DNA from: an uncultured Candidatus Saccharibacteria bacterium
GTDB lineage: Bacteria; Patescibacteriota; Saccharimonadia; CAILAD01; GCA-016700035
DNA: 64,000 bases
Reading direction: 5' to 3'
Assembly: GCA_964646575.1 (NCBI GenBank)
Contig: CAZYFT010000001.1
Location: 8,118 to 72,117 of the forward strand
Shown piece after piece: positions 36,586-64,000 of the stretch. Every line of letters begins with the position of its first letter. Within the stretch, counting starts at the first letter, position 1. The translations under genes and the position numbers were made by a program. The notes beneath the pieces were generated by a model. The model was not told where the DNA came from. It ran no database searches and worked only from the letters and a program-made list of their open reading frames with translations.

Positions 36586-39500
36586 ATGAAAGAATCCAAA
36601 AAGCAAATCCCGCAGAAATCTATTCGTTCAGTCGATGCAGTTCGTCAAGCGGCTGTTTCTGTGCGTAAAGACTCACAGTCGTATGCTCCTATCCAGCACA
36701 TGACGAGGCTCGGTGCAGTTTTTATTGCTGTAAGGTGCTTAGTGCGGCGTGCACCCGAAAAGCTTGAGATATTTAAGGACAGAATAAGGCTAAGCAGCCA
36801 GCGCATAGCTAGCAAGTTGGTTTCTAAGCTTCCAAAGGTATCTGTTCCCCGAATACAAACGTCTAACAGGTTAAAAAGTGTTGTAGCCAGTACATCATTA
36901 GCGCTTATGATGGTTCTGATGTTCTTCAATTTGGGAATTGGTAACATTGCACGAGCGTTCGAGGATCTTAACCAGTCTGATTGGTCTGGTGGGGTTGGCG
37001 CCAGTCCAGTTGATCAGTACAGTGCCGGCGAAAATGTTGTAACCACTACACCAAATAGAATAGAGCTTGGCGTCGATCAACAGAACCAGTGGTGTAATAC
37101 TGCGTTATGTGATAACCAGTGGCAGTATCGGAAATCAGTATGGTTACCACAATATTCAGTTGATCTTACTGGACGCAGCTCAGTTCAACTTGAGTTTGAT
37201 TTGGAATACACGGCAGCAATGAAGTCTGACTTTAGTGATGTCCGCTTTGTAAGCGCCAATGACAGTCAAGATATACCATATGTAATCACAAGCAAGACTA
37301 ATGGTGGGAGCGCTCACTTTATTGTTAAGGTGCCGGTAGTAAATGGCGATTCACCCGAGATGCTACGAGTGTATTACGGAAATGCTAATGCCAGCTCAGT
37401 TGAAAATAAGGCAGGTACTCTCGATATATGGGATGAGTTTGATCAAGGGCGGAGCTGCCCTGCCGGCAATCCAATAGGCTGTACTCCCAATACAGCCGTT
37501 GTAAATATGGGTGAATTGGAAATCAATTCCTCCGATTATTATCCGGCGAGTAATTATGTTCTCTCGAAGGGAATTGATAGGATTTTTCAAATCGATATAA
37601 AGCCACGGGATGCATTTGGCTGTGATTACAACAACTATGTGTCTTACATGTCACTAGGGAAAAATAATTGGTGGCAAGATCCTTCTGGTACTGTCAGTAT
37701 GTATACTTACGGGCGTGGTGGTGGTCAGGGGTGTTCTACTGCGAAAAGCCAACATCAACTCGCAATTATCCAGTCCAGCTGGTTCAGGGATAGTCAAAAT
37801 TATGGTGGTGGGGGATGGTTAGATAATGACCAAATACTTAGGCATACTACTGAAGACACCGAGTGGTTGACTATCCGCACAGTGATGAAGGCTGCTGGAG
37901 GGTATGACGTTTATACGAGCACCAATGGGGGTGCTAGTTTTCGTTTAGTTGGCCAAAATATAAGCTCAAAAGAAACTTTCTTGACCGACTTTGATAGATG
38001 GTATATCTCAACGCAGAGCTCGATGCCGCTGAGTGTGAAAAATATTCGCAGCTATAGCTACGTACCGAACGCACAGCCTGTATCTGTAGGTGTGCAAGAA
38101 AAGTTAGGGGGCTATACAGGTTACTTAGATTCAGTAGAATACGATCTTGGTCAGAATGGCGTATATGTTGGTCAAATTACAGCAGAGACGGTCGGTTCGG
38201 GAAAAATTAGTTTTCGTGTTGTTGGGTCTTCTGTGGAGGGTGGGACAAGTCAGTTTGGTGACGCGCGCCATTGTAAGATTATAGAGAACGGTGGGGATGC
38301 AGGGGCGAGTAACTGCATGGAGGCTAATTCGAGGTACGTAAAATATTTAGCAATCATTCAGGATGATGATGGGAATAAGGATTTTGCCGTAACAAATATT
38401 CGTCTTCAATATGGTTTTGATGATCAATCGCCGAATGCAGCGGGAGGGATAAATGTACGTAGAGAGGGTGCAAGTGGACCGCTTGTTACCACTGGCTGGA
38501 TTAATACTTCACCGTACTTTGGCTGGAGTGCAGCTAGCGATAATCAGGGTGGCAGTGGTGTGGTTGGGTATTGTCTCTATTTTGGGAGCGATGAATCTGC
38601 AGATCTAGCAACCACGCAGGGCATACTTCCTGTTTTGAGCCCTCTGGAAACCAATGACCGTTGTCAGTATGCGGTCTCCGGTACCTCACTCAACATGTCG
38701 CAGCTTGATCTGCAGGCGCAATTAAGTAGTGACACAGTCTACTACCTAAAGATACGAAGTATTGATAAAGTTGGGAATTTGTCTAATGAGTCCGTGTTAA
38801 CAATTGGCTATGATACCGAAGAGCCTGAGTTTAATACCTTGGCAACAGGACCAAATGGCGCTGTGAATTCACCGCTTGCTAATATTAACTGGCTAACGAC
38901 ACCGCCGGCAGGTGCGGATGATAGTGGGGGATCTGGTATCGCGGGTGTTAGATATTGTGTTAATTATTTTGGTAGTGTACTTCCGGAGTGTAACTTAGAA
39001 ACTGGAGGTGGCGAAGATACCCCGGACTGGATATGGTTTGGGGCTTCGGGCAATCCGGGCGGACTATATGATTTATCGGATACCATTCCATTTACAGATG
39101 GAGGATTTCAGATATCCACGAACGCACTTTCTCATTTGACGAATGAAGGCATAAATTATGCCTATGTCGTATTGCTTGATAGAGCTGGTAATGTTGGCGG
39201 TGGTGGCGTGGGTTATATTAATACCACCCAACAGACTGCTTCACCACCCCGAAATCTAGTAGTATCTCCGCCTATTAGCAGTCAGAACCAGTTCTCTTTT
39301 AGCTGGGAGGCGCCTTCCAGCCTGACCGGTCCAGCTAGTGAGGTAGATTACTGCTGGACTGTAAACGCTCCAATATTGCAGGACGCTAGCAATTGTAATT
39401 GGACTGGCAAGGGAATTACCCAGCTGGCGAATGGTGCTTATGCGACGCAGCAGGGGGAGAATACGATGTATGTTATGGCGAAAGATCAATCGCAGAACTT

Positions 39501-41085
39501 CTCGAATATGAATGTGGCAACGGTAAAATTTACAGCATTTACGACAGCACCAGGTGCTCCGCAAAATCTTGAGCTGTCTGATGTGTCTACTCGGGCGACT
39601 GCGAGCTGGAAAATTGCCCTAAGCTGGAGCGCGCCACAGCTGCCGGGTTCCGGTGTGACAGGCTATAAGATTTATAGGTCTACCAATAATGTAGATTTTA
39701 CTGAAGTCGGCACCACGTCAAATACCAATCTTAGCTTTATAGATTCTGGTCTCTCGCAAACTGACTACTATTATTATGTAAAAGCCTGCGATAGCGCTAA
39801 TAGCTGTGGTGTAGCCAGTAATACTGAGATAGAGTATCCGAGTGGTCGATATACCACACCAGCTCGACTAACCGATGACACCGATCAGCCGAAAATCCGA
39901 GATATCGGTACGCGTAAAGCTACAGTTTATTGGTTTACTGACCGAGCAAGTGATTCTAAGATAGCTTATGGTACCGCGCCTGGACAGTATTTCCCTGAAG
40001 AGGTCGGTAATTCGGCACAAATTTCTACACATGTTGTAAATCTTACAAATCTTGAGCCTGGTAAAACATATTATTATGTAGCTCGGTGGACAGATGAAGA
40101 TGGCAATATGGGGGTTTCCACAGAGAGATCTTTCACAACGCTACCAGCGCCAACCGTAAAGGAAGTTTCGGCATCAAATCTGACCATAGGTTCTGCTGTA
40201 GTTAATTTTACAACTGATAATGCACATAAGGCTAATGTATATTTTGGAGCCAATGATGCCTTTGGTGGCGTGAAGAGTGTTAATACTTCAACATCATCTT
40301 CTAGCTATAGTTTAAGTTTGGATAATCTGCGGGATGGGCAGAAATACTACTTTAAGATCAGTACGGTCGATGCCGATGGCTATGAATATCAGGGAGATAT
40401 TTATAGCTTTACCACACCAGCTCGTCCACGGATTATAAATTTGCGCTTTGATACGGTCGAAGGTGAGCCAAGTAGCACCCAGAAGATTGTTTGGACGACC
40501 AATGTTCCGACTACTAGTGAGGTGGTGTATGGTCTGAGGGATGGTAAGCAGATCGAAGCCGTAGACTCGGTGCTTGTGGTGGAGCATGAGATGGTGGTTC
40601 GTGGACTTGAAGACGATGCGGATTATCAGCTAGTTGCCCGCTCGCGCGATGCTGCTGGCAATCTGGCAATATCTGATCGGCAATCTTTCCAGACTGCCGA
40701 GGACACGCGTGCTCCAAAGATTAGTAACTTGAAGATTGAGACAGATATTCGTGGATCCGGAGGCGAAGCTCGAGGCCAGGTGATTGTGTCTTGGCGCACC
40801 GATGAGCCGGCGACCAGCCAAGTAGCCTTTGCTAAGGGTCGCACCGATGAGCTAAGTAATCGATCACAACAAGATACACGTCTAACGACTGAGCATGTGG
40901 TGGTGGTGTCAGATCTGACGACCTCGAGTATTTATCAGGTTCAGGCGGTCTCATCTGATAAGGCTGGTAATGAGTCATCTTCGGATGCTCAAACTGCAAT
41001 CATTGGTCGTGGTACAGACAGTATTTTTAGCGTTATCTTTAATGCCCTGCAAGCAATCTTCGGCTTTGGGGATTCTAGTATATGA
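36586..41085 (+). CDS. Giant (~1499 aa) cell-surface protein. It has an N-terminal signal/anchor, a DUF2341-like (concanavalin/LamG-like) domain, and at least 5 tandem FN3 / purple-acid-phosphatase-N-like beta-sandwich repeats. The annotated start may lie downstream.
   Basis: FSDVRFVSANDSQDIPYVI...MLRVYYGNANA is the DUF2341 signature. Repeated modules end in YYYVKA / YYYVARWTD / YYFKISTVD / YQLVARSRD / YQVQAVSSD (FN3-like). Confidence 0.75.
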   Translation: MKESKKQIPQKSIRSVDAVRQAAVSVRKDSQSYAPIQHMTRLGAVFIAVRCLVRRAPEKLEIFKDRIRLSSQRIASKLVSKLPKVSVPRIQTSNRLKSVVASTSLALMMVLMFFNLGIGNIARAFEDLNQSDWSGGVGASPVDQYSAGENVVTTTPNRIELGVDQQNQWCNTALCDNQWQYRKSVWLPQYSVDLTGRSSVQLEFDLEYTAAMKSDFSDVRFVSANDSQDIPYVITSKTNGGSAHFIVKVPVVNGDSPEMLRVYYGNANASSVENKAGTLDIWDEFDQGRSCPAGNPIGCTPNTAVVNMGELEINSSDYYPASNYVLSKGIDRIFQIDIKPRDAFGCDYNNYVSYMSLGKNNWWQDPSGTVSMYTYGRGGGQGCSTAKSQHQLAIIQSSWFRDSQNYGGGGWLDNDQILRHTTEDTEWLTIRTVMKAAGGYDVYTSTNGGASFRLVGQNISSKETFLTDFDRWYISTQSSMPLSVKNIRSYSYVPNAQPVSVGVQEKLGGYTGYLDSVEYDLGQNGVYVGQITAETVGSGKISFRVVGSSVEGGTSQFGDARHCKIIENGGDAGASNCMEANSRYVKYLAIIQDDDGNKDFAVTNIRLQYGFDDQSPNAAGGINVRREGASGPLVTTGWINTSPYFGWSAASDNQGGSGVVGYCLYFGSDESADLATTQGILPVLSPLETNDRCQYAVSGTSLNMSQLDLQAQLSSDTVYYLKIRSIDKVGNLSNESVLTIGYDTEEPEFNTLATGPNGAVNSPLANINWLTTPPAGADDSGGSGIAGVRYCVNYFGSVLPECNLETGGGEDTPDWIWFGASGNPGGLYDLSDTIPFTDGGFQISTNALSHLTNEGINYAYVVLLDRAGNVGGGGVGYINTTQQTASPPRNLVVSPPISSQNQFSFSWEAPSSLTGPASEVDYCWTVNAPILQDASNCNWTGKGITQLANGAYATQQGENTMYVMAKDQSQNFSNMNVATVKFTAFTTAPGAPQNLELSDVSTRATASWKIALSWSAPQLPGSGVTGYKIYRSTNNVDFTEVGTTSNTNLSFIDSGLSQTDYYYYVKACDSANSCGVASNTEIEYPSGRYTTPARLTDDTDQPKIRDIGTRKATVYWFTDRASDSKIAYGTAPGQYFPEEVGNSAQISTHVVNLTNLEPGKTYYYVARWTDEDGNMGVSTERSFTTLPAPTVKEVSASNLTIGSAVVNFTTDNAHKANVYFGANDAFGGVKSVNTSTSSSSYSLSLDNLRDGQKYYFKISTVDADGYEYQGDIYSFTTPARPRIINLRFDTVEGEPSSTQKIVWTTNVPTTSEVVYGLRDGKQIEAVDSVLVVEHEMVVRGLEDDADYQLVARSRDAAGNLAISDRQSFQTAEDTRAPKISNLKIETDIRGSGGEARGQVIVSWRTDEPATSQVAFAKGRTDELSNRSQQDTRLTTEHVVVVSDLTTSSIYQVQAVSSDKAGNESSSDAQTAIIGRGTDSIFSVIFNALQAIFGFGDSSI

Positions 41086-41888
41086 GTCAGGCACTAGTAG
41101 AGTTTCAAAAGGTGTCGCGTGATTTTAGGGCGGTTGATGGCACGATAAGTGTTTTAAAAGATATAAACTTTAAGGTGGAGACTGGTAGCTTTACGATTAT
41201 CTATGGACCTTCTGGTAGTGGCAAGACGACGATTTTAAATATGATCTTGGGGCTTTTACCGCCAACCAAAGGGGATGTTGTGGTAAGCGGAGAGAAGTTA
41301 TATGGTTTGACACAAGATGGTCGTGCAAAATTCAGGGCAGCCCATTATGGTATTGTGAGTCAGGTTAATAACTGGATATTGAGTATGAATGTGCAGGAAA
41401 ATGTAGCTTTGCCGTTGTATCTTTCTGGTACTCCGCGTCATGAAGCGCTTAAGAAGGCTGCTGCCAGCATTGAGCGCGTCGGGCTTGCGAAGTATATGCG
41501 CTATAATCCGGCGGTGTTGTCGGTTGGTCAACAGCAACGTATTTCGATGGCGCGGGCGACAGTTAAAACGCCACGGCTTTTAATTGCTGATGAGCCTACT
41601 GGTAACCTCGATACGACAAATGGCGACATGATAATGCAGCTCATGACTAGCTTTAGAAATCATGAGAATACAACCGTAATACTGGTGACTCATAATTTGA
41701 GTTATCTTTCATTGAGTAGTCATCGACTCTTCTTGAAAGACGGCGTTTTATCAGTGGATGAGGGTGGCTTCCAGCTAGAAGAAGAGCGTCGACGTATGTT
41801 GATGACAAGCTTTTTGGAGGCTAATAAAACGGACACTGCTCAACAGGGCAAGGCGGCGTCTGTGAAGAAAGGCGGCAAGCGTGGCTGA
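41082..41888 (+). CDS. ABC transporter ATP-binding protein (MacB/LolD/FtsE type).
   Basis: Walker A GPSGSGKTT, signature LSVGQQQRISMARA, Walker B LLIADEPTGNLD. 4-nt overlap with the upstream giant protein gene. Confidence 0.85.
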   Translation: MSQALVEFQKVSRDFRAVDGTISVLKDINFKVETGSFTIIYGPSGSGKTTILNMILGLLPPTKGDVVVSGEKLYGLTQDGRAKFRAAHYGIVSQVNNWILSMNVQENVALPLYLSGTPRHEALKKAAASIERVGLAKYMRYNPAVLSVGQQQRISMARATVKTPRLLIADEPTGNLDTTNGDMIMQLMTSFRNHENTTVILVTHNLSYLSLSSHRLFLKDGVLSVDEGGFQLEEERRRMLMTSFLEANKTDTAQQGKAASVKKGGKRG

Positions 41889-43164
41889 GCGTAACCATAA
41901 AACCAATGAGAAAGCGAATGAATTGAAGGTTATGCCTAGGCTAAAAAAGCACCGATTTAAGAGAGAAGGCGTGGTGGCAACATCCATTCTGGTGCGTATG
42001 GCGGCCCAGAATCTTTTCTTTAAGAGGCTACGAACTACGCTGACCATTCTTGGCGTGGTGATTGGTATTGGTGCGGTGATATTTTTGCTCTCGTTTGGGT
42101 ATGGTTTGCAGAATTTAGTTAGCCGTCAAGTGATTGGGGCAAAATCGGTTAAGAGTATTGATGTCAATAAGCCACGCTCGACAGCCATTAAATTTGATGG
42201 TGAAAATATTACTCGGCTCAAAAATATTGGTTCGGTGGAATCGGTGGCTCGCGTTTTTACCGAAGCTGCTAAAGTAAAATCGGGTAGCTCACAGATTGAT
42301 TCGGTGCTGTTTGGCGTTGATTCAGAATATCTAAACCTAGCCTCCGTACGCGTGGTGACTGGCAAAAGTTTATTGGCGGGCGGCTCGACGGATGAGACCC
42401 TAATCAATACTTCACTTGCAAGAGCAGTGGGCTTACCACAAGGCGATGAGGTACTCGGCAAGGTGATTAATATGAGTTTTGATGTTGTGCAGGCTGATGG
42501 GGTCAAGAAAACTGTTCAGAAGGACATGAGAATTATCGGCCTTGTTGAAGGGAGTGGGGGTGCTGAAGTTTTTGTGCGTAGTCAGCTATTTATTGATAAT
42601 GGTGCCCAAGATGCCGGTCAAGTAAAGATACTGGCAACTGATCGGGCGGCTGTACCGCAGATTCGTAAGGAGATTGAAAGTATTGGCTTCGCTACCGCGT
42701 CACCACTTGATACTCTAGACCAGATTTCTCAGGTGTTCGGTTTGCTACAGATGGTCTTTATTGGTTTTGGAGGGATTGGTATGGTGATTGCGATACTCGG
42801 GATGTTTAACACGCTGACTATTTCTTTATTGGAGAGGACTCGGGAAATTGGGCTCCTGATTGAGTTTGGTGCGCGACGACGAGATATTAAACGGCTATTT
42901 ATCATTGAGTCTTTAATGTTATCAATATTGGGTGGCCTAATTGGGTTAATTAGTGCCTTCATGCTCGGTAAGATCGCTGATGTGGCAATTAGTAGCTTTG
43001 CGCGTAGTCGAGGAGTGCAGGAGTCGGTGTCAGCTTTTATGGTGACACCTCAGTTAGCAATTATGACGTTGGTATTGAGCGCATTGTTTGGGCTGGCAGT
43101 TGTTTATTTTCCGGCGCGTCGGGCATCACGAATTGATCCGATTGACGCATTGCGTTACGAATAA
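41881..43164 (+). CDS. ABC transporter permease, MacB/FtsX family. It has a large extracytoplasmic domain between TM1 and TM2.
   Basis: FtsX-type C-terminal 3 TM bundle (EIGLLIEFGARRRDIKRLFIIES...). An N-terminal TM is followed by a ~220-aa loop. Overlaps the ATPase gene by 8 nt. Confidence 0.8.
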   Translation: MAERNHKTNEKANELKVMPRLKKHRFKREGVVATSILVRMAAQNLFFKRLRTTLTILGVVIGIGAVIFLLSFGYGLQNLVSRQVIGAKSVKSIDVNKPRSTAIKFDGENITRLKNIGSVESVARVFTEAAKVKSGSSQIDSVLFGVDSEYLNLASVRVVTGKSLLAGGSTDETLINTSLARAVGLPQGDEVLGKVINMSFDVVQADGVKKTVQKDMRIIGLVEGSGGAEVFVRSQLFIDNGAQDAGQVKILATDRAAVPQIRKEIESIGFATASPLDTLDQISQVFGLLQMVFIGFGGIGMVIAILGMFNTLTISLLERTREIGLLIEFGARRRDIKRLFIIESLMLSILGGLIGLISAFMLGKIADVAISSFARSRGVQESVSAFMVTPQLAIMTLVLSALFGLAVVYFPARRASRIDPIDALRYE

Positions 43165-53563: not shown

Positions 53564-54561
53564 ATGACACTCAAACAGAACTGCGTCAGGTTCAATCTGA
53601 CTTTACTGCTCGTTTAGCTGAGGTGAAGACCCAGCCAGATTTGCTTACTTTAAAATCGGACTTTCTCGGTAAAAAGGGGAGGCTGCAGGCCATTTTGAAG
53701 TCTCTGAGCGCGCTTTCAGTAGATGAGCGGCGGGATATTGGCGCTCGGGCCAATGCATTAAAGAAGGAAATAGAGGGGCAGCTAGCGCGGCAAGAGTTTG
53801 TTATTGCAGAGAGCGCTGACGCGTCACTCTCTTCAGTTGATCTATCTTTACCTATACGTAGCGAGCAGCGGGTGGGGCATGGACACCCTACACAGCTTGT
53901 TTTAGACGATATTTATGAAGTGTTCTTGCGCTTGGGCTTCGCGGTTGTTGATGGGCCTGAGGTAGAGACTGATTGGTATAACTTTGAGGTCCTTAATATG
54001 CCGGCAGATCACCCAGCCCGGGATATGCAGGATACGTTTTATTTGGAGGCTGAAGAAGGCGCGGTGCCTTTGGTGCCGAGAACACACACCTCGGCTTCGC
54101 AAATTCGCTATCTGGAGACTCATAAGCCACCGTTTAAGATTATCGTGCCCGGGAAAGTCTATCGCAATGAAGATGAGGATAGAACTCACTCCTGGACATT
54201 TTATCAGGTGGAGGGCTTGGTGGTTGGCGAGGGTGTGAGCATGGCGGATCTAAAGGGCACATTGTTACACTGCGTACAATCTTTGCTTGGTTCAGATGTG
54301 AAGATTCGCTTTAGGCCAAGCTTTTTCCCATATACCGAGCCGTCTGTTGAGGTTGACGTGTGGTATCAAAATGAGTGGCTTGAGGTTGGCGGTGCTGGTA
54401 TGGTGCACCCACATGTTTTGGCGCGTGGTGGAGTGGATCCGGAGCACTTTTATGGGTTTGCTTTTGGGTTTGGTCCAGATCGGTTGGCGCTTATTCGCTA
54501 TGGCTTAACGGATTTGCGCAAGCTATGGCGCCCCAATCTTCTGATGAGTGAGGATTTATGA
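53560..54561 (+). CDS. pheS: Phenylalanyl-tRNA synthetase alpha subunit.
   Basis: Class II motifs FRPSFFPYTEPSVEVDV and GAGMVHPHVL. Confidence 0.9.
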   Translation: MNDTQTELRQVQSDFTARLAEVKTQPDLLTLKSDFLGKKGRLQAILKSLSALSVDERRDIGARANALKKEIEGQLARQEFVIAESADASLSSVDLSLPIRSEQRVGHGHPTQLVLDDIYEVFLRLGFAVVDGPEVETDWYNFEVLNMPADHPARDMQDTFYLEAEEGAVPLVPRTHTSASQIRYLETHKPPFKIIVPGKVYRNEDEDRTHSWTFYQVEGLVVGEGVSMADLKGTLLHCVQSLLGSDVKIRFRPSFFPYTEPSVEVDVWYQNEWLEVGGAGMVHPHVLARGGVDPEHFYGFAFGFGPDRLALIRYGLTDLRKLWRPNLLMSEDL

Positions 54562-57383
54562 AAATAGCAATTGCTACACTTAATCGATACTTGAAAAAGC
54601 CACGATCAACCGACGAAATCGTGGAGCTTATGGCGCGCACAGAAATTGAGGTAGAGGAAATTATTCGCTCGGATAGTTTGGATGCAAAGATTATTTTAGT
54701 GAAGACTGTTGAAGTTGAACCGCATCCCAATGCCGATCGACTTCGCCTTGTGACGGTAACAAATGGCACAGATAAGATTAGGGTTGTGTGCGGAGCGCCA
54801 AATGTTACGGTTGGTCAGCGCGTTGGTTTGGTGCAGCCGGGTGCAAAATTGCCAGACGGAACAAAGATTGGTGTATCGAAGATCCGCGGCGAGGTTTCGC
54901 ATGGCATGCTCGCAAGTGCTCAGGAGCTTGGCTTGAGCGATGATCATTCTGGCATCTTTGTTTTTGAAGAAGACTCACATAGGCTCGGTACATCATTGTG
55001 CGACATTGTGTTTTTCGGGGATGTGCTAGACATAAAGACACCTGCAAATAGATGGGATTACCTAAGTGGGGTAGGGCTAGCGCGCGAATTGGCCGCCCAT
55101 GATGAAGGGCAGGGGGTAGTGGAGCCCGCAGTTGGCGAGTATTCATATAAAAACACCGACTACGTAAATGTCAAGGCGAGGGAAGAGAATAGACGGTTTG
55201 TTTCGGCGAAACTCAGAGTTAAGAATGATGTAAAAAGTCCTGCATGGCTTGTGGATAACTTGGCGGCGAATGGAATCGCCACTCATAATCCAGTTGTTGA
55301 TATTACAAACTTTGTGATGCTTGAACTTGGTCAGCCGAGTCACGCCTATGATGCTACAGCATTGACTGGCCCACTCGAGGTTCGCTATGCCGAGAAAGGT
55401 GAAAAAATTACCACACTCGATGATGAGACGCGTGAATTAACCGAGCAGGATCTTGTTGTATGCGATGCAACTGGTCCGGTTGGCTTGGCTGGCGTAATGG
55501 GCGGAGCTTCTAGCCAAATTGGGATAGAAACTACCGAAATTGTACTTGAGGCTGCACACTGGGATAAGTCGTGCATCCGCAAGACTGCTGTGCGACACGG
55601 TTTGCGCACGGAAGCTTCGTCTCGGTTTGAGCGCCCTATCCCACTCCCCTTGCCACAAAAAGCTTTTTCAAGACTCTTAGATTTGCTCACAGAAATTTGT
55701 GAAGCTGAAATTATTGAAGGACCGTATGATCAGCTGCATGGCTGGCCGTGGCAACAATTTTTGGGCGTTCGAGTTCGTCAAGCCGAACGGTTTTTGGGGA
55801 TTACTCTGGATGAGAAGCAGGTTGTTAAGGACCTAAAGAAGCTAGGATTTTCGGTTGAGCACTTCTCTATCACTAAAGAGCTGAGAAGCCATGTCGGAAA
55901 ACCATATCGTTGGGGTGCGAATTTTCGTCAAGATGGCGAGGAGGCCTTTGATTGCTCATATCTGGTGGATCGCATCTATTCTAAGCTTGGTATTTTTGTT
56001 GGTCATACGGCCTTGGGGCAAATTCATACAGGTCGACCAGTTGAAGCAAACGAGCTCAAGCCTGGAGATGTGTTGTTTTATGAGGGGAAAATTGAGAAAT
56101 CTGTAACTGATCATTATTATTTAATGAATCCTGATGGCACTAAGACCAGATACGATCTGGAGAAGCCAGAAAAAGTTGGACATAACGGCATTTATCTAGG
56201 CGGTGGCCAAGTGGTTCAGGCAGCGCAGTATAAATACCAGCAGGGCGAATGGGTGCGTCGCGATGAGGGCGGTGTGATCATCTCCCCCGTTGAGGAATTT
56301 ATCGAGAACCCCGGCTATCTGGGTGCGCGGCGTTATGTTGAAAGTTTCAATCATATTCTGGCGGTAGAAGTCCCCTGGTGGCGCAGTGACATTCGCTTAG
56401 AGGCGGATATGTTTGAGGAGATTGCCAAGTTGGTTGGATACGACAAGATGTCCGAGACATTGCCTGATATCGCGCCGATGCCGGATTCTAGCCAGTCGCC
56501 ACTAGTTGCAATGCGTGAATTGCGCCGGCGGTTGAGACATATTGGAGGCACCGATGTCGCAACATACAGCTTCATATCAGAGACCGACGCCAAAGCCTCT
56601 AAGTTAGCCATCGATAGTTTGCCTACGGTAGCTAATCCACGCTCCCCTGAACAGAAATATTTGCGGTCTGATCTACTGGCAAGTCATCTGACGATGTGGC
56701 AAAAGAATAGCGTATCTAAGACTGGTCAGGTGGCCTTTGAGCTTTCTAGGGTTTTTGATGGCTCGGGCAGAGACGGCAAGCTACCTAAAGAAAAATGGGT
56801 GTTGGCAATAAGTACTCATGGATCGGACTCTTTGAGTCAATTGCAGGCGTACGTACACCATTTCCTGGCTGGCCTACATGTACAGGCAAAGTTTCAAGTT
56901 GATGAGCGTGCTGATGACAGGTTGGTGCCTCAGCGATCGGCACAGCTGATGGTCGGTGGTGCTAAGCTTGGTGTAATTGGTCAAGTAAGTACTCCTATCT
57001 GGAAGCAGTTCGGCCTCACTCAACCTGCTAGTTATTCACTTCTTGATATTAAGGTGCTTTTGGAGGTCATCGCTACACCACGAGTAAAAACACTCCCAGA
57101 TTATCAGTTGGTACAGCGAGATATGAGCCTAGAAATGAGCGAGGTAACGAGCTGGCAGTCAATTACAGAAGTTGCACTTGAGCAGGCTGGACTCGTAAGC
57201 TGGGAATATCTATCCAGTTACCGCGATGCTGAACTTGAGCAGGCTGGACGAAAGGTAATCACGATAAAGGTAAGATTTGATCTTGGCCCGCGCCCAGAGG
57301 CAAGTGAGATTACGCGTATAGAAACAGACTTGGTGGCTGCATTGCAGTCTGTCTGTCCGTCGGCCGAGTTAGTGGTTCGGTAA
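54558..57383 (+). CDS. pheT: Phenylalanyl-tRNA synthetase beta subunit. Carries a ~160-aa NlpC/P60-type cysteine peptidase domain inserted within the B5 domain (residues ~441-598).
   Basis: PheT modules are all present: tRNA-binding domain (EPHPNADRLRLVTV), B3/4 (ATHNPVVDITNFVMLELGQPSHAYDA), B5 (VPWWRSDIRLEADMFEEIAKLVGYDKM), and FDX-ACB C-terminus. The protein is 941 aa versus ~800 aa typical. The insert carries DCSYLVDRIY...GDVLFYEG...GHNGIYLGGGQVVQA (NlpC/P60 Cys-His-His). Confidence 0.9.
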   Translation: MKIAIATLNRYLKKPRSTDEIVELMARTEIEVEEIIRSDSLDAKIILVKTVEVEPHPNADRLRLVTVTNGTDKIRVVCGAPNVTVGQRVGLVQPGAKLPDGTKIGVSKIRGEVSHGMLASAQELGLSDDHSGIFVFEEDSHRLGTSLCDIVFFGDVLDIKTPANRWDYLSGVGLARELAAHDEGQGVVEPAVGEYSYKNTDYVNVKAREENRRFVSAKLRVKNDVKSPAWLVDNLAANGIATHNPVVDITNFVMLELGQPSHAYDATALTGPLEVRYAEKGEKITTLDDETRELTEQDLVVCDATGPVGLAGVMGGASSQIGIETTEIVLEAAHWDKSCIRKTAVRHGLRTEASSRFERPIPLPLPQKAFSRLLDLLTEICEAEIIEGPYDQLHGWPWQQFLGVRVRQAERFLGITLDEKQVVKDLKKLGFSVEHFSITKELRSHVGKPYRWGANFRQDGEEAFDCSYLVDRIYSKLGIFVGHTALGQIHTGRPVEANELKPGDVLFYEGKIEKSVTDHYYLMNPDGTKTRYDLEKPEKVGHNGIYLGGGQVVQAAQYKYQQGEWVRRDEGGVIISPVEEFIENPGYLGARRYVESFNHILAVEVPWWRSDIRLEADMFEEIAKLVGYDKMSETLPDIAPMPDSSQSPLVAMRELRRRLRHIGGTDVATYSFISETDAKASKLAIDSLPTVANPRSPEQKYLRSDLLASHLTMWQKNSVSKTGQVAFELSRVFDGSGRDGKLPKEKWVLAISTHGSDSLSQLQAYVHHFLAGLHVQAKFQVDERADDRLVPQRSAQLMVGGAKLGVIGQVSTPIWKQFGLTQPASYSLLDIKVLLEVIATPRVKTLPDYQLVQRDMSLEMSEVTSWQSITEVALEQAGLVSWEYLSSYRDAELEQAGRKVITIKVRFDLGPRPEASEITRIETDLVAALQSVCPSAELVVR

Positions 57384-58999: not shown

Positions 59000-59329
59000 A
59001 TGAATGAAACTCAAAAATCTCAGGTTCAAACAGGTCGGGTGCAGGTAATCAGCAACCCTTTTCCTGAATCTACGTCGCACAATATTGAGTCGCCACCAGT
59101 TGCGGAGCATGATCAAGCTAAGGCACAGCCAGATGCGGCGAATGCGAATTCCTCCACTTCCCCATCGGCAGCCGCAGATAGCGACTTAATAGAGAAAACC
59201 TGGATAAGCGCTGTGGATAAAATTTCTCGTGATCATGGAGACGACCCGTTTACGTTGCAGCAAAAACAGGCTGAACTTACGCGTGATTATCTGAAAAAGC
59301 GGTTTGGTCGGGAGATAAAAGCATCGTGA
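59000..59329 (+). CDS. Small acidic, low-complexity protein. Translationally coupled (GTGA overlap) to the downstream ATPase.
   Basis: ORF with a disordered Ser/Ala/Pro-rich middle and a conserved-looking C-terminus. No motif. Confidence 0.3.
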   Translation: MNETQKSQVQTGRVQVISNPFPESTSHNIESPPVAEHDQAKAQPDAANANSSTSPSAAADSDLIEKTWISAVDKISRDHGDDPFTLQQKQAELTRDYLKKRFGREIKAS

Positions 59330-61818
59330 ATGCAGTGATGGTGCTGGCGACATTTTTGGTATTGGCATTTATTGCCGTTGCAGCAATTGGCGCGGCATTA
59401 TTTGCACGACGTTCGCAGCACGCGAAAGATATTGAGCGCGGCTTAAAAATGGTCCCATTACTACTTAAGCTCCCCCCTGCCGAGGAGGATGAGAGTCAAC
59501 GTGATGATCGTGAAAAAATTAAAGAGAATATTTCTAAAGCCGAGGGAATATTTACGTTACTATCGGGGCTCGCAACAAAGCGTAAGCTCTATTCGCAGCG
59601 ACATATTGCGTTTGAAATTGTGGCCCGTGGCGAGCAGATATATTTTTATGTAGGTGTTCCCGCGGCCTTGACGAGCGCTGTGGAGAAGGCGTTAGTCTCG
59701 GCTTACCCCACTATTCAGATCGAGCAAGCGTCTGAGCATAATATCTTCAGTCAACAGGGCAAACTAGCAGGAGTGGTTGGGGGTGAGCTAAATTTGACTC
59801 AAAAAAATATCTACCCAGTGCAAACCTATAAGACACTCGAGTTTGACCCTATGAGCGGCATGATTGCTTCGTTGTCGAAGCTGACACAAGATGAAGGTGC
59901 TGCAATTCAGATAATGGTTCGTCCAGCTCCTGCTAAGTGGGCGAAGGGTGCCCGTGAGTATGCGAAGGGGCTACTCAATCCCCAGAGAGCCAAATCGAAC
60001 GATCCGATGCACATCGCAACACAAATAGCTAAGGCGCCATTTTCAACACCAGATTGGCAGGCTAAAGAGCAGATGCATGATCCGACTAAGCAGGCCGATA
60101 CTATTGATCAAAAGCAGGCTCAAGCAATCGAAGAAAAGGCCAGTGAACCGGCCTTTGAGACATTAGTGCGGGTTTTGGCGAGTTCGAGCGATCAGGCCCG
60201 CAGCCAGCTTGTTGTTCAGGATATCGTCAACGGTTTTGCGCAGTTTAATCAGCCGGGTAGTAATGGTTTTGTATATGCGCCGGCCAACACACCGCGGGAG
60301 TTAGCGCATGATTTTATATTTCGAATTTTCCCCAGGAATCGTAAGGGCGTTATATTAAACTCTACTGAGCTTGCCACGATCTTTCATTTGCCAGACGTCG
60401 CAGCCGAGATTGGAACTCCCCTGGAGCGCAAAGGCCGGCGCGAGGTTTCAGCTCCAGCCGAGTTACCAAGCCAGGGCGTCGTGATTGGCTCAAACTTCTT
60501 TCAGGGTAAGGAAAAAGTTGTGCGGCTTTCTGATGAGGATCGTAAGCGCCACATGTATATCATTGGGCAAACTGGTACTGGTAAGTCAGTGACGCTAGAA
60601 GATCTTATTGTGCAAGATATGGCGCTTGGCAAGGGGCTGTGTGTGATCGATCCGCACGGTGAGCTAGCTGATGCGGTGCTCGCTAAGGTACCGCGGAGCA
60701 GAATTGATGATGTGATTTACTTTAATCCGGCAGACCTAGCTGTGCCTCTTGGTCTAAATATTATGGAGTTTGATCCTGAGCATCCAGAGCAGAAAGACTT
60801 CATCATTCAAGAAGTAATTAACATGCTCTATAAGCTGTACGACCCAGATAAGCAGGGAATTATTGGACCCCGCTTTGAGCATTGGTTCCGCATGGCGTCG
60901 CTGACAATTATGTCCGACCCTCAGGGAGCGACATTCCTAGAGGTGCCAAAGCCGTTTGTAGATGATGAGTATCTGAAAGAGAAATTTAAGCATGTGAAAG
61001 ATACGACTGTGCAGGATTTTTGGATAAATGAGATGGGTCAGACTTCGGATTACCACAAGAGTGAGATGCTTGGTTGGTTTGTGTCCAAGTGGGGTGCGTT
61101 CCAGTCTAACGAAGTGATGCGCAATATTATCGGGCAACATAAGAGCGCTTTTAATTTTACTGAAATCATGGACTCAAATAAGATTTTGATTGTGAATCTC
61201 TCAAAGGGACAAACAGGTACAGAAAATTCGCGTCTTTTGGGCATGATTTTTGTGATCAAGCTCCTAGCGGCTGCACTTGCTCGATCTGGTCGCGAGAAAA
61301 GTCAGATGCCGCAGTTTACGCTCTATGTAGACGAGTTCCAAAACTTCTCGACGGACAGTTTTGCGACTATCCTCTCCGAAGCCCGTAAATACAACCTGTG
61401 TCTCGTGGTTGCCAACCAGTTTATAGGACAGCTGTCTGAAGAAATCAAAGGCGCGGTGTTTGGTAATGTTGGAACACTGTTTACGTTTCGCTGCGGGCCT
61501 GAAGATGCCGAGTTTTTGGAGAAGCAATTTGAGCCAAGCTTTGATCGCAATGATTTGGTCAATATCCCGAACTTACAAGGTGCCATTAAGCTGATGGCCA
61601 ATGGCCTGCCAACAGTGCCGTTTACGATCCATCCGGTGTTTCCGCCGGTAGGCAAGGCAAATGTAGAAGTTGCGATGCAACTTAAGGAACTGACGCGCAA
61701 GCGGTTTGGTCGTCCAAAAGCCGAAGTTGAAGAAGAAGTCCGCCAGCAATTGCGTACGCGCGATGGTGAAACGAGCACCGCTGCCGAAAAGAAGCCAGCT
61801 CCAGCCCCTGTTGGTTAG
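59326..61818 (+). CDS. Membrane-anchored T4SS-type P-loop ATPase (VirB4/TraC- or VirD4/TraD-like; DUF87/AAA_10-like).
   Basis: N-terminal TM. Walker A IIGQTGTGKSVTL followed by VIDPHGELAD. Walker B/TraM-recognition-like FTLYVDEFQNFS...ARKYNLCLVVANQFIGQL. 830 aa. Confidence 0.6.
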   Translation: MNAVMVLATFLVLAFIAVAAIGAALFARRSQHAKDIERGLKMVPLLLKLPPAEEDESQRDDREKIKENISKAEGIFTLLSGLATKRKLYSQRHIAFEIVARGEQIYFYVGVPAALTSAVEKALVSAYPTIQIEQASEHNIFSQQGKLAGVVGGELNLTQKNIYPVQTYKTLEFDPMSGMIASLSKLTQDEGAAIQIMVRPAPAKWAKGAREYAKGLLNPQRAKSNDPMHIATQIAKAPFSTPDWQAKEQMHDPTKQADTIDQKQAQAIEEKASEPAFETLVRVLASSSDQARSQLVVQDIVNGFAQFNQPGSNGFVYAPANTPRELAHDFIFRIFPRNRKGVILNSTELATIFHLPDVAAEIGTPLERKGRREVSAPAELPSQGVVIGSNFFQGKEKVVRLSDEDRKRHMYIIGQTGTGKSVTLEDLIVQDMALGKGLCVIDPHGELADAVLAKVPRSRIDDVIYFNPADLAVPLGLNIMEFDPEHPEQKDFIIQEVINMLYKLYDPDKQGIIGPRFEHWFRMASLTIMSDPQGATFLEVPKPFVDDEYLKEKFKHVKDTTVQDFWINEMGQTSDYHKSEMLGWFVSKWGAFQSNEVMRNIIGQHKSAFNFTEIMDSNKILIVNLSKGQTGTENSRLLGMIFVIKLLAAALARSGREKSQMPQFTLYVDEFQNFSTDSFATILSEARKYNLCLVVANQFIGQLSEEIKGAVFGNVGTLFTFRCGPEDAEFLEKQFEPSFDRNDLVNIPNLQGAIKLMANGLPTVPFTIHPVFPPVGKANVEVAMQLKELTRKRFGRPKAEVEEEVRQQLRTRDGETSTAAEKKPAPAPVG

Positions 61819-61880
61819 TTGTCAGAACTTGGTTGACGGGCTACAATCTTAAGTAACATAACAGGTAAGGGTGAAAAATA

Positions 61881-63434
61881 ATGCTGTTTCGCGACGTAGT
61901 CTCAAATATTTCGCTTGGTAGAGAAAGCAAAAATGTACTTGGCTTTTACATTAAACGAATTGCCGATGAGCAGTCGACGCGTGTCATCACGGCCGTATTG
62001 GCGCTCATCATGGTCGCTTTTCAGTCGGTGACATTTATTGCGCCACCAAAAATATCAGAAGCCAGTTCGGGTTCGTCAAACGATATACTCTACGGTGGGT
62101 ATAGTTCCAAAAATGATTTGTTGCGTAAGTTTGATTCTAACCCGGAGCTAAGGGCGATATACACCCGGGTTGGTATTGGACGTGATGAAATTGTTCGGGC
62201 GACCAACAGTCGTGTGAATTCATCGTGGGATGTGTGGTCGATGGGGCGAAGGCGTCATGGCGAGCAGAATGTCCAGCTCGATATTCCAGGTGCGCACACT
62301 GCTATTTATTTGCGGCCACTGAGGGTGTGGGGCAATAATAAATGGTTCTCTGGCCTGGAGGGCAAGACGGCTGCCGGGAAGCAGTTTTGGATACTCTATG
62401 ATTGTGGTAACCCAGTGTTTGCTGCTAACACTCCAGGCGAGAAGGTGCCAGCACCATCAACGCCACCTCCACCTCCTCCTCCGCCACCACCTCCACCAAC
62501 TACTCCCCCGCCACCGCCAGCCATAAGCTACGCCTGTCAGAGCTTGGCCGCCTACATAGACACGGCCAATAGCGGCAAGAATCCGCCACTCAAAGTAACC
62601 TTTGCTGGCGTTGCACAAATTGCCAATACTAAACTGAAGAACTACATTTTCGATTTTGGAGACGGAGAACGGATCTCAACTGATAAATCTCAAGTTGAAC
62701 ACACCTATAAAAAGTCAGGAACATATGTTGCTCGCTTGAGGATTGAAACTGCCGCAGGTACAACCAATAACTCAACCGCTTGCTCGCAAACAATTCGTGT
62801 TGTGGATGCCAAACTAACTTACAATAAGCAAGCAGTTAATCTGTCTATTAAGGACAAAAGCGGCAACCCAATACAGGCCAGCGGCACTACGGCTCAGGCT
62901 GGTAACGAAATTCGCTACAGTATCTCGGCGACCAATACAGGTACGGGTATTATTTCTGGGTTTGTATTCGAAGAAGCTATCGCCGATATCCTAGAATACG
63001 CTGACGTGCAGGATTTAGGTGGGGCTCAGCTAATTGAGAAGCCAATTCCGGGACAAGAAGACAAGCTAGTGGAGCGTACATTAGTGTGGGGTAAGGTAGA
63101 CATTAAAGGTGGTGAGACGGTTACCAAGCAGTTTGTAGTTCGGGTAAAAAACCCTATCCCTACCACGCCAACTGGCGTGAGTGATCCAAGCTCTTACGAC
63201 CTCAAAATAGAAAATATATTCTTTAACAACCGAGTCGAAATTCTGTTAGAGCAGCCACCTGTGAAGAGAGTCGAGGAAGTTGCTCAGACGCTGCCGCAAA
63301 CTGGTGTCGGATTGGCAACCACCAGCATGGCATTCTTTACGAGTGGTATGGTGTTCATCTTACTGCGTAATCGATTGATTAAGCGCGAGCTTGAAATTAT
63401 CGCTGTGACTGATCAAGGAGGCACCCATGGCTGA
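61881..63434 (+). CDS. Surface protein with an N-terminal signal anchor, a poly-Pro linker, a PKD domain, a DUF11-like repeat and a C-terminal LPXTG-type sorting signal.
   Basis: PKD motif FDFGDGE...HTYKKSGTYVARL. Linker PPPPPPPPPPPPTTPPPPP. C-terminal LPQTG is followed by a hydrophobic stretch and RNRLIKRE. Confidence 0.6.
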   Translation: MLFRDVVSNISLGRESKNVLGFYIKRIADEQSTRVITAVLALIMVAFQSVTFIAPPKISEASSGSSNDILYGGYSSKNDLLRKFDSNPELRAIYTRVGIGRDEIVRATNSRVNSSWDVWSMGRRRHGEQNVQLDIPGAHTAIYLRPLRVWGNNKWFSGLEGKTAAGKQFWILYDCGNPVFAANTPGEKVPAPSTPPPPPPPPPPPPTTPPPPPAISYACQSLAAYIDTANSGKNPPLKVTFAGVAQIANTKLKNYIFDFGDGERISTDKSQVEHTYKKSGTYVARLRIETAAGTTNNSTACSQTIRVVDAKLTYNKQAVNLSIKDKSGNPIQASGTTAQAGNEIRYSISATNTGTGIISGFVFEEAIADILEYADVQDLGGAQLIEKPIPGQEDKLVERTLVWGKVDIKGGETVTKQFVVRVKNPIPTTPTGVSDPSSYDLKIENIFFNNRVEILLEQPPVKRVEEVAQTLPQTGVGLATTSMAFFTSGMVFILLRNRLIKRELEIIAVTDQGGTHG

Positions 63435-64000
63435 AAAACTTACTCATAATCCCGAGCAAGATGCTGGTAGTAAACATGAAAAGCCAGAGCTTAAGGTGGA
63501 GGCCACGCAGCAGAATGTAGAAAAAGCTCATGAAAAGCCAGAAAATCGACAGGAAAAAGAGAAGTCTGTCGAGAAGAGCCGAGAGAAACTAGAGAAAGCT
63601 CTAGATAAAGAAGCTGAGAAGGCTCGTGAGAAACAGCCTAAGCCACAGGAGGCCCGTGAGCCACAAACGATAACGCGCGCTAAGCGTGATGCGGCCTTTA
63701 ATTCAACTATGAAAACAGTGCGGACACAGCTTTCTCCGGTGCAGCGAGGGTTTTCTAAATTTGTGCATGCTAAACCAGTTGAGGTTGTGAGCGAGCTTTT
63801 AGAGGAAACAATCTTTCGGCCGAGTTTTCTGTGGGGCGGTGTAATTGGCGGCCTAATTTTAGGCGCTAGCTTGTATCTATTCGCTCGAGCGCAAGGTTTT
63901 CGTCTCTCGGGTTCGGAGTTTATCGTTGGCATGTTTATTGGTGGAGTAATTGGGATAATTTTTGAAAAGCTATTTGGACGGAAGAAGTCAGCCAAAAACC
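63427..64000 (+). CDS. Partial CDS running off the window end. Lys/Glu-rich N-terminus with C-terminal TM helices. Overlaps the upstream stop by 8 nt.
   Basis: Open frame from the ATG at 63427 with no stop before 64000. Translation: MAEKLTHNPEQ...FLWGGVIGGLILGASLYLF...IVGMFIGGVIGIIFEKLF. It is not in the ORF track because it lacks a stop. Confidence 0.4.
   Translation, partial: MAEKLTHNPEQDAGSKHEKPELKVEATQQNVEKAHEKPENRQEKEKSVEKSREKLEKALDKEAEKAREKQPKPQEAREPQTITRAKRDAAFNSTMKTVRTQLSPVQRGFSKFVHAKPVEVVSELLEETIFRPSFLWGGVIGGLILGASLYLFARAQGFRLSGSEFIVGMFIGGVIGIIFEKLFGRKKSAKN

Follow-up and report, generated by a model that had tools for sequence, protein, structure and literature searches.

Type IV secretion system (T4SS) coupling proteins (T4CPs) of monoderm and archaeal conjugative elements include those annotated as DUF87 proteins, "TraM recognition domain" proteins, or "type IV secretory system conjugative DNA transfer family" proteins, whose genes adjoin Replic_Relax genes on plasmids of Bacillus, Embleya/Streptomyces, and haloarchaea. 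The classical diderm coupling proteins TrwB/VirD4/TraD, DotL, and Cagbeta are membrane tethered, usually have two TM helices, and are encoded with relaxase or T4SS genes. DotL has the small partners IcmS and IcmW. A small regulatory or adaptor partner, CagZ, accompanies Cagbeta (title of PDB entry 8dol).

Bacteria of the CPR (Patescibacteria) account for a large share of bacterial diversity and depend on their hosts through poorly understood envelope machines. The CPR T4SS has been reported to be essential, yet without a recognized coupling protein or relaxase; in Southlakia epibionticum ML1, the T4SS is essential and a coupling protein is unrecognized in its locus (PMC10633639). A survey of 2,918 Patescibacteria genomes found 5,713 VirD4-like homologues, only 148 of them near virB4; the authors held exaptation of these homologues possible and noted that T4CP genes are often away from virB4 in ordinary systems too (PMC12102498).

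Gene layout of the locus

The window, the whole 64,000-nucleotide stretch of DNA that was analyzed, is chromosomal DNA of a Saccharibacteria (CPR) member with housekeeping gene content, and the epibiotic, reduced-genome lineage suspected by a sequence-only reading of the DNA was borne out. All four ORFs described in that reading were found on the + strand, together with the motifs quoted for them. The features of the locus are as follows.

59000..59329, +, small acidic partner protein, 109 aa (ORF call; stop overlaps the ATPase start, GTGA)
59326..61818, +, DUF8128-family ATPase, 830 aa, GTG start (FtsK-HerA superfamily, VirB4/VirD4 [T4SS] branch)
59332..59403, +, one TM helix at the N-terminus (residues ~3-26), then RRSQHAK (hydropathy)
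59443..60465, +, N-terminal DUF8128 domain (residues ~40-380; fold resembling the N-terminal domain of VirB4)
60478..61665, +, P-loop motor domain, residues ~385-780 (Walker A, DPHGE, Walker B, VVANQ strand)
60565-60588, +, Walker A, GQTGTGKS
61321-61335, +, Walker B, LYVDE, residues 666-670
61819..61847, +, promoter-like site TTGTCA-17-TACAAT in the gap between the ATPase and surface-protein genes (consensus scan, 10/12 matches; a consensus match alone, function not implied)
61881..63434, +, sortase-type surface protein, 517 aa (Pfam and hydropathy)
62580-62777, +, PKD domain (Pfam E 3e-12; PDB PKD matches, ColH)
62856-63158, +, DUF11/CLIPPER-like (DUF11/DUF7927-like) domain (weak, under the Pfam cut-off)
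63291-63305, +, LPQTG, residue 471, followed by a hydrophobic segment (476-494) and an RNRLIKRELE tail
63427..64000, +, KE-rich protein, 191 codons, cut by the window end (translation)

The genes had been described as overlapping, which is the case at two of the three junctions: the small-protein and ATPase genes share 4 nt (GTGA), and the surface-protein and KE-rich genes share 8 nt. The ATPase and surface-protein genes are instead separated by 62 nt, and downstream of the promoter-like site in this gap lies an AAGGGTG sequence, 7 nt ahead of the surface-protein ATG.

As the sequence-only reading had stated, the window holds no further T4SS parts. Pfam scans assigned only housekeeping and envelope functions to 44 other window ORFs and detected no VirB-type protein, relaxase, or sortase among them. 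No relaxase or mating-pair-formation genes were present among 48 scanned window ORFs or within 10 kb downstream in the related loci L002, L081, and L085; no integrase was found in the window itself or in the 10 kb that follow; and neither the window nor the flanking DNA of related loci had VirB3/PrgI, VirB6, or pilin genes beside the ATPase. The locus has no nuclease or Sir2 partner and no tRNA boundary, and the GC content of the genes (0.48, versus 0.42 to 0.49 in the rest of the window) is unshifted. Since full T4SSs are reported to be encoded elsewhere in CPR genomes (PMC12102498, PMC10633639), the absence of partners here can be explained without invoking a "minimal system."

The ATPase and its small partner

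The quoted ATPase motifs were located at residues 414 (Walker A, GQTGTGKS), 442 (DPHGE), 667 (YVDEFQNF), and 687 (RKYNLCLVVANQ). K420, S421, D669, and E670 were invariant across 38 homologues, as were the Walker A, Walker B, and DPxG motifs. The structure model has a helix over residues 3 to 40, and an N-terminal hydrophobic segment was present in 73 of 75 full-length homologues. The anchor is one strong hydrophobic helix, where coupling proteins typically have two, and the positive-inside rule predicts that the bulk of the protein is cytoplasmic. The DUF8128 (PF26449) call follows a precomputed annotation, which a database protein of 100% identity (P0001) shares with every close homologue.

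The proposal that the protein is a T4SS-type ATPase was confirmed, because both of its domains match VirB4/VirD4-type structures and its homology to plasmid genes in the coupling position runs end to end. In Foldseek searches, the whole length of the ATPase aligned to TrwK, and a VirB4-type N-terminal domain was recognized. The VirB4 profiles did not follow: PF03135 (CagE_TrbE_VirB) had no match to the ATPase, and TIGR00929 (VirB4) scored 19.7 bits against a cut-off of 643.1. Sequence profiles favored coupling proteins of the TrwB/TraD/CedD type, with TrwB and DotL ranked top among PDB entries, and the motor carries a helical insertion (residues ~480 to 616) of the TrwB-like, all-alpha kind. 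PF10412 (TrwB_AAD_bind) reached 30.9 bits against a cut-off of 20.5, but over 63 of its 387 profile positions; PF12696 (TraG-D_C) reached 21.7 bits against a cut-off of 22; PF02534 appeared only as a "faint" precomputed match; and all scores for the NCBIfam TraD/VirD4 models were far under their cut-offs.

The sequence-only reading had allowed that the ATPase might prove to be a housekeeping FtsK or HerA protein in a conserved chromosomal context. The context is indeed conserved, but the class assignment did not hold. FtsK/SpoIIIE was rejected because the ATPase does not show the combination of a PF01580 motor, alpha and gamma domains, and a four-TM N-terminus. A HerA repair helicase was rejected because the combination of a HAS-barrel N-terminus, a motor of the HerA type, and a nuclease or effector partner gene was likewise not found.

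Matches to the ATPase were found in 276 plasmid records and 42 phage records, the latter including SPO1-like Bacillus phages, which are without a T4SS. On a Bacillus subtilis plasmid, the gene for the homologue (residues 87 to 790 of the ATPase, 23% identity, BLASTP E 3e-40) is immediately followed by a Replic_Relax gene and by genes for conjugal transfer. An Embleya plasmid (tblastn E 6e-56) has the order PrgI, ATP-binding protein, homologue, Replic_Relax, NlpC/P60, and a Haloterrigena plasmid homologue lies within a conjugation locus. All of the closest characterized contexts of homologues are conjugation loci. It is well supported that the ATPase is a chromosomal descendant of monoderm/archaeal conjugative coupling-type ATPases, corresponding to the T4CP position, and that the neighboring relaxase and mating-pair genes have been lost.

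The closest relatives of the ATPase are in Saccharibacteria and other CPR metagenome-assembled genomes, and more than 7,000 database clusters match it. A small acidic ORF is directly upstream of the ATPase gene in 62 of 75 loci, mostly overlapping it or separated by fewer than 20 nt. Across CPR classes, the pair is kept at fixed housekeeping positions (38 to 99% identity), with L21, PrmC, RmuC, EF-P, pheST, and the atp operon as neighbors rather than virB4. The well-supported core of the locus is a CPR-wide, two-gene unit, in which translational coupling joins a small acidic protein to a DUF8128 ATPase tethered to the membrane by its N-terminus.

The small protein has the size first described, but with a pI of 5.5 it is just mildly acidic, and hydropathy analysis revealed no TM segment in it. 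A disordered, P/Q/S-rich N-terminus precedes a conserved helical C-terminal region of ~50 aa with the pattern A.D.D.IEK.W...DPY/F....L.RDYLKKRF (alignment of 11 orthologues). No match was found in Pfam, NCBIfam, PADLOC, or PHROG, and the 782 database clusters of the protein are all annotated as "hypothetical," none with a Pfam domain. In distant CPR, a counterpart family (c1) is encoded directly upstream of the ATPase; its similarity to the Saccharibacteria protein is weak (hhalign probability 60%, E 8.7e-5), and the DPY motif is common to both.

The surface-protein pair and the counterparts in S. epibionticum

In the surface protein, a signal anchor (residues 35 to 53) is followed by a conserved domain of ~140 aa and a poly-Pro linker. 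The anchor, linker, PKD domain, and LPQTG motif previously reported for this protein were all recovered, whereas the DUF11-like region remained weak and below the cut-off. The complete C-terminal sorting signal is present; LPQTG, LPATG, or LPRTG occurs in eight of nine complete orthologues, and the TM segment and basic tail that follow it are also conserved. The KE-rich protein was correctly described as a membrane protein: it has a C-terminal two-TM hairpin and is complete at 194 aa in a 99%-identical contig (L002). Its orthologues always follow the surface-protein gene, even where the pair is inverted. Related S. epibionticum has two sortases, SEML1_0327 and SEML1_0711 (ML1 gene table).

The probable ML1 counterparts of the four genes, judged from gene order, sizes, and domain content, are SEML1_0141 to SEML1_0144. 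In ML1, genes for proteins of 139, 1,019, 193, and 535 aa (the last with Ig and DUF11 domains) are followed by gyrB (Wang et al. 2023). Locus L085 bridges this arrangement to that of the window, since its four proteins are homologous to those of the window, whereas its surface pair is inverted and followed by gyrB, as in ML1. In published Tn-seq data, SEML1_0141 (139 aa) was scored GD/ES/ES; SEML1_0142 (1019 aa), a member of a core and Patescibacteria-enriched family, ES/ES/ES; and SEML1_0143 and SEML1_0144 NE, although in an obligate epibiont a need for host interaction and a need for viability look alike.

ML1 also has a second paralogue, SEML1_0293, which is non-essential and whose pattern of Pfam matches resembles that of the ATPase. 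Quinonero-Coronel et al. (2025) discussed one ML1 t4cp homologue and called it not essential (PMC12102498); presumably this is SEML1_0293, because it is the only such ML1 gene with an NE call in the Tn-seq table.

Possible functions and comparison with known systems

We infer that the protein is a coupling-type ATPase that has been domesticated, has no relaxase, and serves the CPR T4SS that is encoded elsewhere, a function to which we give roughly even chances. Against it speak the near absence of the gene from the vicinity of virB4 in CPR (PMC12102498), the non-essential ML1 paralogue with similar Pfam matches, and the weak similarity of the small partners between Saccharibacteria and other CPR. 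The ATPase ring would assemble at the cytoplasmic face of the membrane, with the small partner as its putative adaptor or regulator, and ATP hydrolysis would drive the hand-over of protein, or less likely DNA, to the relaxase-less T4SS channel, which would be the one encoded elsewhere in CPR genomes and required for epibiotic growth. In Saccharibacteria, the second pair would have a separate promoter and provide a Sec-exported, sortase-anchored PKD/DUF11 protein and a small two-TM protein.

It is somewhat unlikely that the ATPase and small partner, after exaptation of a coupling protein, became a CPR-specific machine that stands alone and works without a T4SS; it might dislocate membrane proteins or pilins in a VirB4-like manner, take up host macromolecules, or have an envelope or cell cycle role. 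The position of the pair among housekeeping genes rather than beside virB4 fits such a machine, as do the rarity of virB4 linkage and the exaptation raised in the published survey (PMC12102498), the complete VirB4-like architecture of two domains plus a TM anchor, the essentiality and core-family membership of the probable ML1 counterpart, and the homologues in phages that have no T4SS. However, distance from virB4 is common for T4CP genes in ordinary systems, the closest characterized contexts are conjugation loci throughout, and no conserved neighbor hints at an alternative substrate. Furthermore, a canonical FtsK is present in ML1 and ComEC-dependent competence is dispensable in S. epibionticum (PMC12857230), so that two obvious alternative jobs are taken or non-essential. 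A particular form of this proposal, which we consider unlikely, is an essential, CPR-wide, membrane-tethered VirB3/VirB4-like motor, derived from a plasmid coupling protein, that might extract or insert membrane or surface proteins or import host macromolecules where epibiont and host meet, with the sortase-anchored neighbor in Saccharibacteria as a possible client or docking partner.

The sequence-only reading had suggested a minimal or novel translocation/adhesion module. In a self-contained module of four genes, the ATPase might energize export, anchoring, or function of the LPxTG protein with the assistance of the KE-rich protein. Saccharibacteria loci with enough sequence all keep the four genes side by side, and this adjacency survives inversion and changed flanks (L085 and the ML1 table), which goes beyond passive synteny. 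Yet the surface and KE-rich proteins accompany the ATPase in Saccharibacteria only; elsewhere in the CPR, the downstream genes are unrelated and only the small protein and ATPase travel together. A promoter-like site divides the two pairs, Tn-seq of the probable counterparts separates an essential ATPase pair from a dispensable surface pair, and the surface protein, which brings a Sec-type signal anchor and a sortase signal of its own, requires no dedicated ATPase. A single module therefore seems quite improbable. The LPxTG protein looks like an ordinary sortase-anchored surface protein that happens to be stable in its position beside the ATPase pair, and the surface and KE-rich proteins are probably an adhesin-type accessory outside the motor, linked to it by position and maybe by joint use at the host interface. 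Homologues on plasmids and phages, together with HerA/mad8 matches in PHROG and PADLOC, could also point to an integrative conjugative element in decay, to a gene left by a prophage, or to an anti-phage ATPase of the HerA/DptH type. This is highly improbable for a pair that is conserved across CPR classes at fixed housekeeping sites, has an essential probable counterpart in ML1, and shows no integrase, relaxase, nuclease, Sir2, tRNA boundary, or composition shift.

The gene pair is a CPR-wide candidate for the missing T4SS motor and adaptor; if it does not have this role, a conjugation ATPase has been re-used in another essential job. Because the probable counterpart is essential in the sole genetically tractable Saccharibacterium, the question is directly testable. 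The ATPase combines a VirB4-like N-terminus with coupling-protein features, and its relatives occur on plasmids of Gram-positive bacteria and archaea as well as in SPO1-like phages, which also bears on the relationship between the VirB4 and VirD4 families.

The patescibacterial T4CP homologues surveyed in 2025 resemble the ATPase in organism group, annotation class, and lack of virB4 linkage; the VirB4-like N-terminal domain, small partner, and link to a surface pair are in neither Quinonero-Coronel et al. (2025) nor Wang et al. (2023). VirB4 proteins (TrwK of R388 and VirB4 of Thermoanaerobacter pseudethanolicus) have the same two-domain architecture, but the ATPase is not beside VirB3 or VirB6, and CPR genomes encode a separate bona fide VirB4 (SEML1_0008 in ML1). 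The classical diderm coupling proteins share the membrane tether and are without the VirB4-like N-terminal domain of ~350 aa. With the plasmid T4CPs, the ATPase has in common the N-terminal domain, G..G.GKS, DPHG, a Walker B with DE, and a next strand ending in Q. It does not have the long, acidic tail found at the C-terminus of the B. subtilis plasmid protein, and no relaxase, VirB4, PrgI, or cell-wall hydrolase is encoded nearby. Unlike the plasmid T4CPs, the ATPase clearly starts with a TM helix and has a small acidic partner conserved upstream, and it is chromosomal, set in a housekeeping context, and vertically conserved across the CPR.

The four genes and their chromosomal setting

ORF calling and translation showed that the four ORFs claimed for the end of the window by the sequence-only reading are all real:

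59000-59329: small protein, 109 aa
59326-61818: ATPase, 830 aa
61881-63434: surface protein, 517 aa
63427 to past the window end: KE-rich ORF (two TM segments)

The motifs quoted for the ATPase were located at residues 414 (GQTGTGKS), 442 (DPHGE), 667 (YVDEFQNF), and 687 (RKYNLCLVVANQ), and the LPQTG of the surface protein was found at residue 471. All of the genes had been described as overlapping, but overlap is confined to two junctions, small protein/ATPase (GTGA, 4 nt) and surface protein/KE-rich protein (8 nt). The 62-nt gap between the ATPase and surface protein genes carries a ribosome-binding site as well as a promoter-like sequence, TTGTCA-17-TACAAT. The small protein is acidic, as proposed, but only mildly so (pI 5.5); it had no match in Pfam, NCBIfam, PADLOC, or PHROGs, and a profile search with it recovered only "hypothetical" proteins. 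In Pfam the ATPase matched DUF87, TrwB_AAD_bind, and TraG-D_C, and the surface protein matched PKD (E 3e-12) and, weakly, DUF11/DUF7927. The proposed LPXTG sorting signal is genuine: LPQTG, LPATG, or LPRTG, a TM segment, and an RNRLI+ELE tail are kept in orthologues. The KE-rich gene is invariably 3' of the surface protein gene, even where the pair is inverted. Assignment of the KE-rich protein to DUF5353 or AtpZ was rejected, with no significant Pfam match (PF09527, E 0.098, not meaningful).

The nearest relatives are Saccharibacteria metagenome-assembled genomes, among them locus L002 (contig CAZOVH010000007.1; 99% protein-level identity). The remaining genes of the window have housekeeping and envelope functions:

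directly upstream of the four genes: L,D-transpeptidase
elsewhere in the window: several tRNA synthetases (including pheST), MurT/GatD, IF-3, bactofilin, YifB
elsewhere in the window: glycosyltransferases, subtilase
elsewhere in the window: 1499-aa fn3 surface protein and MacB-type ABC transporter
elsewhere in the window: UvrD/AddB-like protein, RmuC

Base composition is uniform across the window. Scans of the window ORFs detected no other type IV secretion system (T4SS) component, relaxase, integrase, or sortase, in agreement with the sequence-only reading, and no VirB6, VirB8, relaxase, or sortase was found in the window or within 10 kb downstream in L002 and two further related loci, L081 and L085. 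Past the window end, L002 completes the KE-rich gene and then encodes a 277-aa membrane protein and F-type ATP synthase subunits b, delta, alpha, gamma, beta, and epsilon.

Several other features of the region were recorded. GC skew is positive over the whole window (1-64000) and the + strand encodes nearly every long gene, which is consistent with one replichore and genes biased to the leading strand. The window also encodes a tmRNA (30560-30962). An apparent second module for the envelope or surface lies at 36586-43164: the 1499-aa secreted protein combines DUF2341, fn3, and purple-acid-phosphatase N-terminal domains, and its gene overlaps those for the MacB-type ABC ATPase and an FtsX-like permease. 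In pheT (54558-57383), an NlpC/P60 peptidoglycan-hydrolase-type domain (residues 447-519; Pfam E 4e-12) is inserted between B3_4 and B5; such a match was likewise recorded for the L081 orthologue and is absent from the 667-aa L085 PheT. In the 277-aa protein (L002 14719-15552, just past the window end; counterpart gene, L081 11038-11841), a signal peptide is combined with a two-TM hairpin at the C-terminus; the hairpin is loosely like the c subunit of ATP synthase, with a GRNPL loop and an ...IIGRG end, but lacks the carboxylate. The resemblance amounts to 25% identity to a c-subunit sequence and is weak, with no Pfam match. The gene occupies the expected place of the a and c subunit genes, directly before atpF-H-A-G-D-C; neither was seen at that locus, and both are present in Southlakia epibionticum ML1, a cultivated Saccharibacterium.

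Conservation of the ATPase and its small partner

Gene order was surveyed in 80 loci, each from a different species genome. Twelve Saccharibacteria loci, in which ATPase identity was 52% or more, shared the order YkuD, small protein, ATPase, surface protein, KE-rich protein, and L081 (55% identity) kept it, with the pheST and atp genes included. The other loci, from Parcubacteria, Moranbacteria, Staskawiczbacteria, and others (37 to 42% identity), had unrelated genes downstream of the ATPase and were embedded in other housekeeping genes (L21, PrmC, RmuC, EF-P, P-type ATPase). Directly 5' of the ATPase in 56 of these non-Saccharibacteria loci was an acidic protein of 120 to 165 aa (cluster c1), which has a C-terminal "DPY" helix motif in common with the Saccharibacteria small protein (hhalign probability, 60%; E 8.7e-5). 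The sequence comparison is suggestive of homology between the two.

An N-terminal hydrophobic helix was kept in 73 of 75 full-length ATPases. The acidic partner was directly 5' in 62 of the 75, mostly overlapping or at most 20 nt apart, so that gene order is conserved across the candidate phyla radiation (CPR) for the small protein and ATPase, whereas the surface pair (surface protein and KE-rich protein) follows only in Saccharibacteria. Because the small partner persists where the downstream genes differ, the conserved unit is the small protein plus the ATPase.

Domain architecture and relatives of the ATPase

A 100%-identical database protein is annotated as PF26449 (DUF8128). The AlphaFold2 model of the ATPase (pLDDT 79) has the following parts:

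N-terminus: TM helix
residues ~40-380: alpha/beta domain
residues ~385-780: P-loop domain with a helical insertion (~480-616)
C-terminus: disordered tail

The N-terminal domain lies just past the N-terminus in every one of 1645 representative clusters. TrwB and DotL were the top PDB sequence-profile matches, and the best NCBIfam matches were SXT TraD, CedD, and CD1115-type VirD4, every one far under the cut-off; the sequence profiles thus lean towards coupling proteins. Identity as FtsK or as a HerA repair helicase was excluded by profile scores, by the N-terminal fold, and by the separate FtsK of ML1. Many Saccharibacteria orthologues are longer, at 1000 to 1415 aa (L085 8470-12711; database matches P0084-P0120), the added length being a low-complexity, proline-rich extension of the C-terminus, missing from the 830-aa protein.

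Searches with tblastn matched 276 plasmid and 42 phage records; a single match spanned at least 80% of the query in 57 plasmid and 36 phage records (20 to 30% identity). PHROG 5156 matched the ATPase end to end (E 2.5e-77). A 27.5-kb Bacillus subtilis plasmid encodes an 885-aa homologue (BLASTP E 3e-40 over residues 87-790, including the N-terminal domain) directly 5' of a Replic_Relax gene, which is followed by genes for conjugal transfer and for a large ATP-binding protein. The order on an Embleya plasmid is PrgI, XF1762, ATP-binding protein, homologue, Replic_Relax, NlpC/P60, and on a haloarchaeal plasmid the homologue comes after a "conjugal transfer protein." Thus, the family takes the coupling-protein position in bona fide conjugation loci that have a separate VirB4.

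On Haloterrigena plasmid pHTS138 (L088 5860-10153) the tblastn match was split between a 399-aa "hypothetical protein" and the next, "TraM recognition domain" protein, so that this plasmid may encode the VirB4-like N-terminal domain as a polypeptide of its own. Of the 42 phage genomes, nearly all belong to phage G or to large SPO1-group myophages of Bacillus, and they have no T4SS context; the phage homologues are full length, with 20 to 23% identity over 85 to 89% of the query (Bacillus phage G gp156; SP8 QPX71692.1, L089 3276-5996).

Probable counterparts in S. epibionticum and possible roles

Gene and transposon-sequencing (Tn-seq) tables are available for ML1 (Wang et al. 2023, PMC10633639).

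ML1 genes and Tn-seq calls (ES, essential; NE, non-essential; PMC10633639)
SEML1_0141, + strand: 139 aa, hypothetical; GD/ES/ES
SEML1_0142, + strand: 1019 aa, "TraM recognition domain," core, Patescibacteria-enriched family; ES/ES/ES
SEML1_0143, minus strand: 193 aa; NE
SEML1_0144, minus strand: 535 aa, Ig and DUF11; NE
SEML1_0145, + strand: gyrB; ES/ES/ES

L085, on a 915-kb Saccharibacteria contig, is a syntenic bridge between the window and ML1 arrangements. Gene by gene, it reads pheS, pheT, YkuD, a 207-aa protein (minus), the 139-aa small protein, and the DUF8128 ATPase, then a 184-aa protein (minus), a 449-aa DUF11/LPQTG protein (minus), two ORFs, and gyrB, and it encodes homologues of all four window proteins (43, 50, 33, and 32% identity). 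By this synteny, SEML1_0141 to SEML1_0144 are very probably the counterparts of the four genes. A C-terminal tail like that of the longer orthologues might be where SEML1_0142 tolerates its few transposon insertions. ML1 also encodes a second, non-essential paralogue of the ATPase (SEML1_0293, 921 aa), a canonical essential FtsK, and two sortases (PMC10633639).

The family has been catalogued by Pfam, counted among "T4CP homologues" (type IV coupling proteins; PMC12102498), and listed in the Tn-seq table (PMC10633639). Literature searches on DUF8128 and SEML1_0142 found no paper on either, none describing the VirB4-like N-terminal domain or the conserved small partner, and none on the contrast in essentiality between the two pairs or the SPO1-like phage relatives.

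That the four genes form one module, as first proposed, seems unlikely. They stay adjacent across at least two rearrangements, which argues for selective linkage of some kind, but the surface pair has its own export route, probably its own promoter, and a non-essential phenotype in ML1 (SEML1_0143/0144, by synteny). A mobile-element or defence remnant is highly improbable: PADLOC returned HerA/mad8 matches, but defence partner genes are lacking and the housekeeping context is conserved.

Quinonero-Coronel et al. counted 5,713 VirD4-like homologues in 2,918 CPR genomes, just 148 of them near virB4, reported that the t4cp homologue of ML1 is not essential, and left exaptation possible (PMC12102498). 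Among such ML1 genes, the Tn-seq table has an NE call for SEML1_0293 alone, which is therefore presumably the gene meant; on our reading, the essential paralogue was overlooked. A motor exapted to work independently of any T4SS is a tentative alternative. The reading we favour, at about even odds, is an ATPase that couples substrates to a T4SS, and the question of the ATPase and its small partner is directly testable in S. epibionticum. Such a coupling ATPase would assemble as a ring in cytoplasmic orientation and serve a CPR T4SS encoded at a distance, with the small partner as a putative adaptor, comparable to CagZ for Cagbeta or to the adaptors of DotL. The relatives in coupling position fit the published descent of the CPR T4SS from the monoderm MPF-FATA class (PMC12102498).
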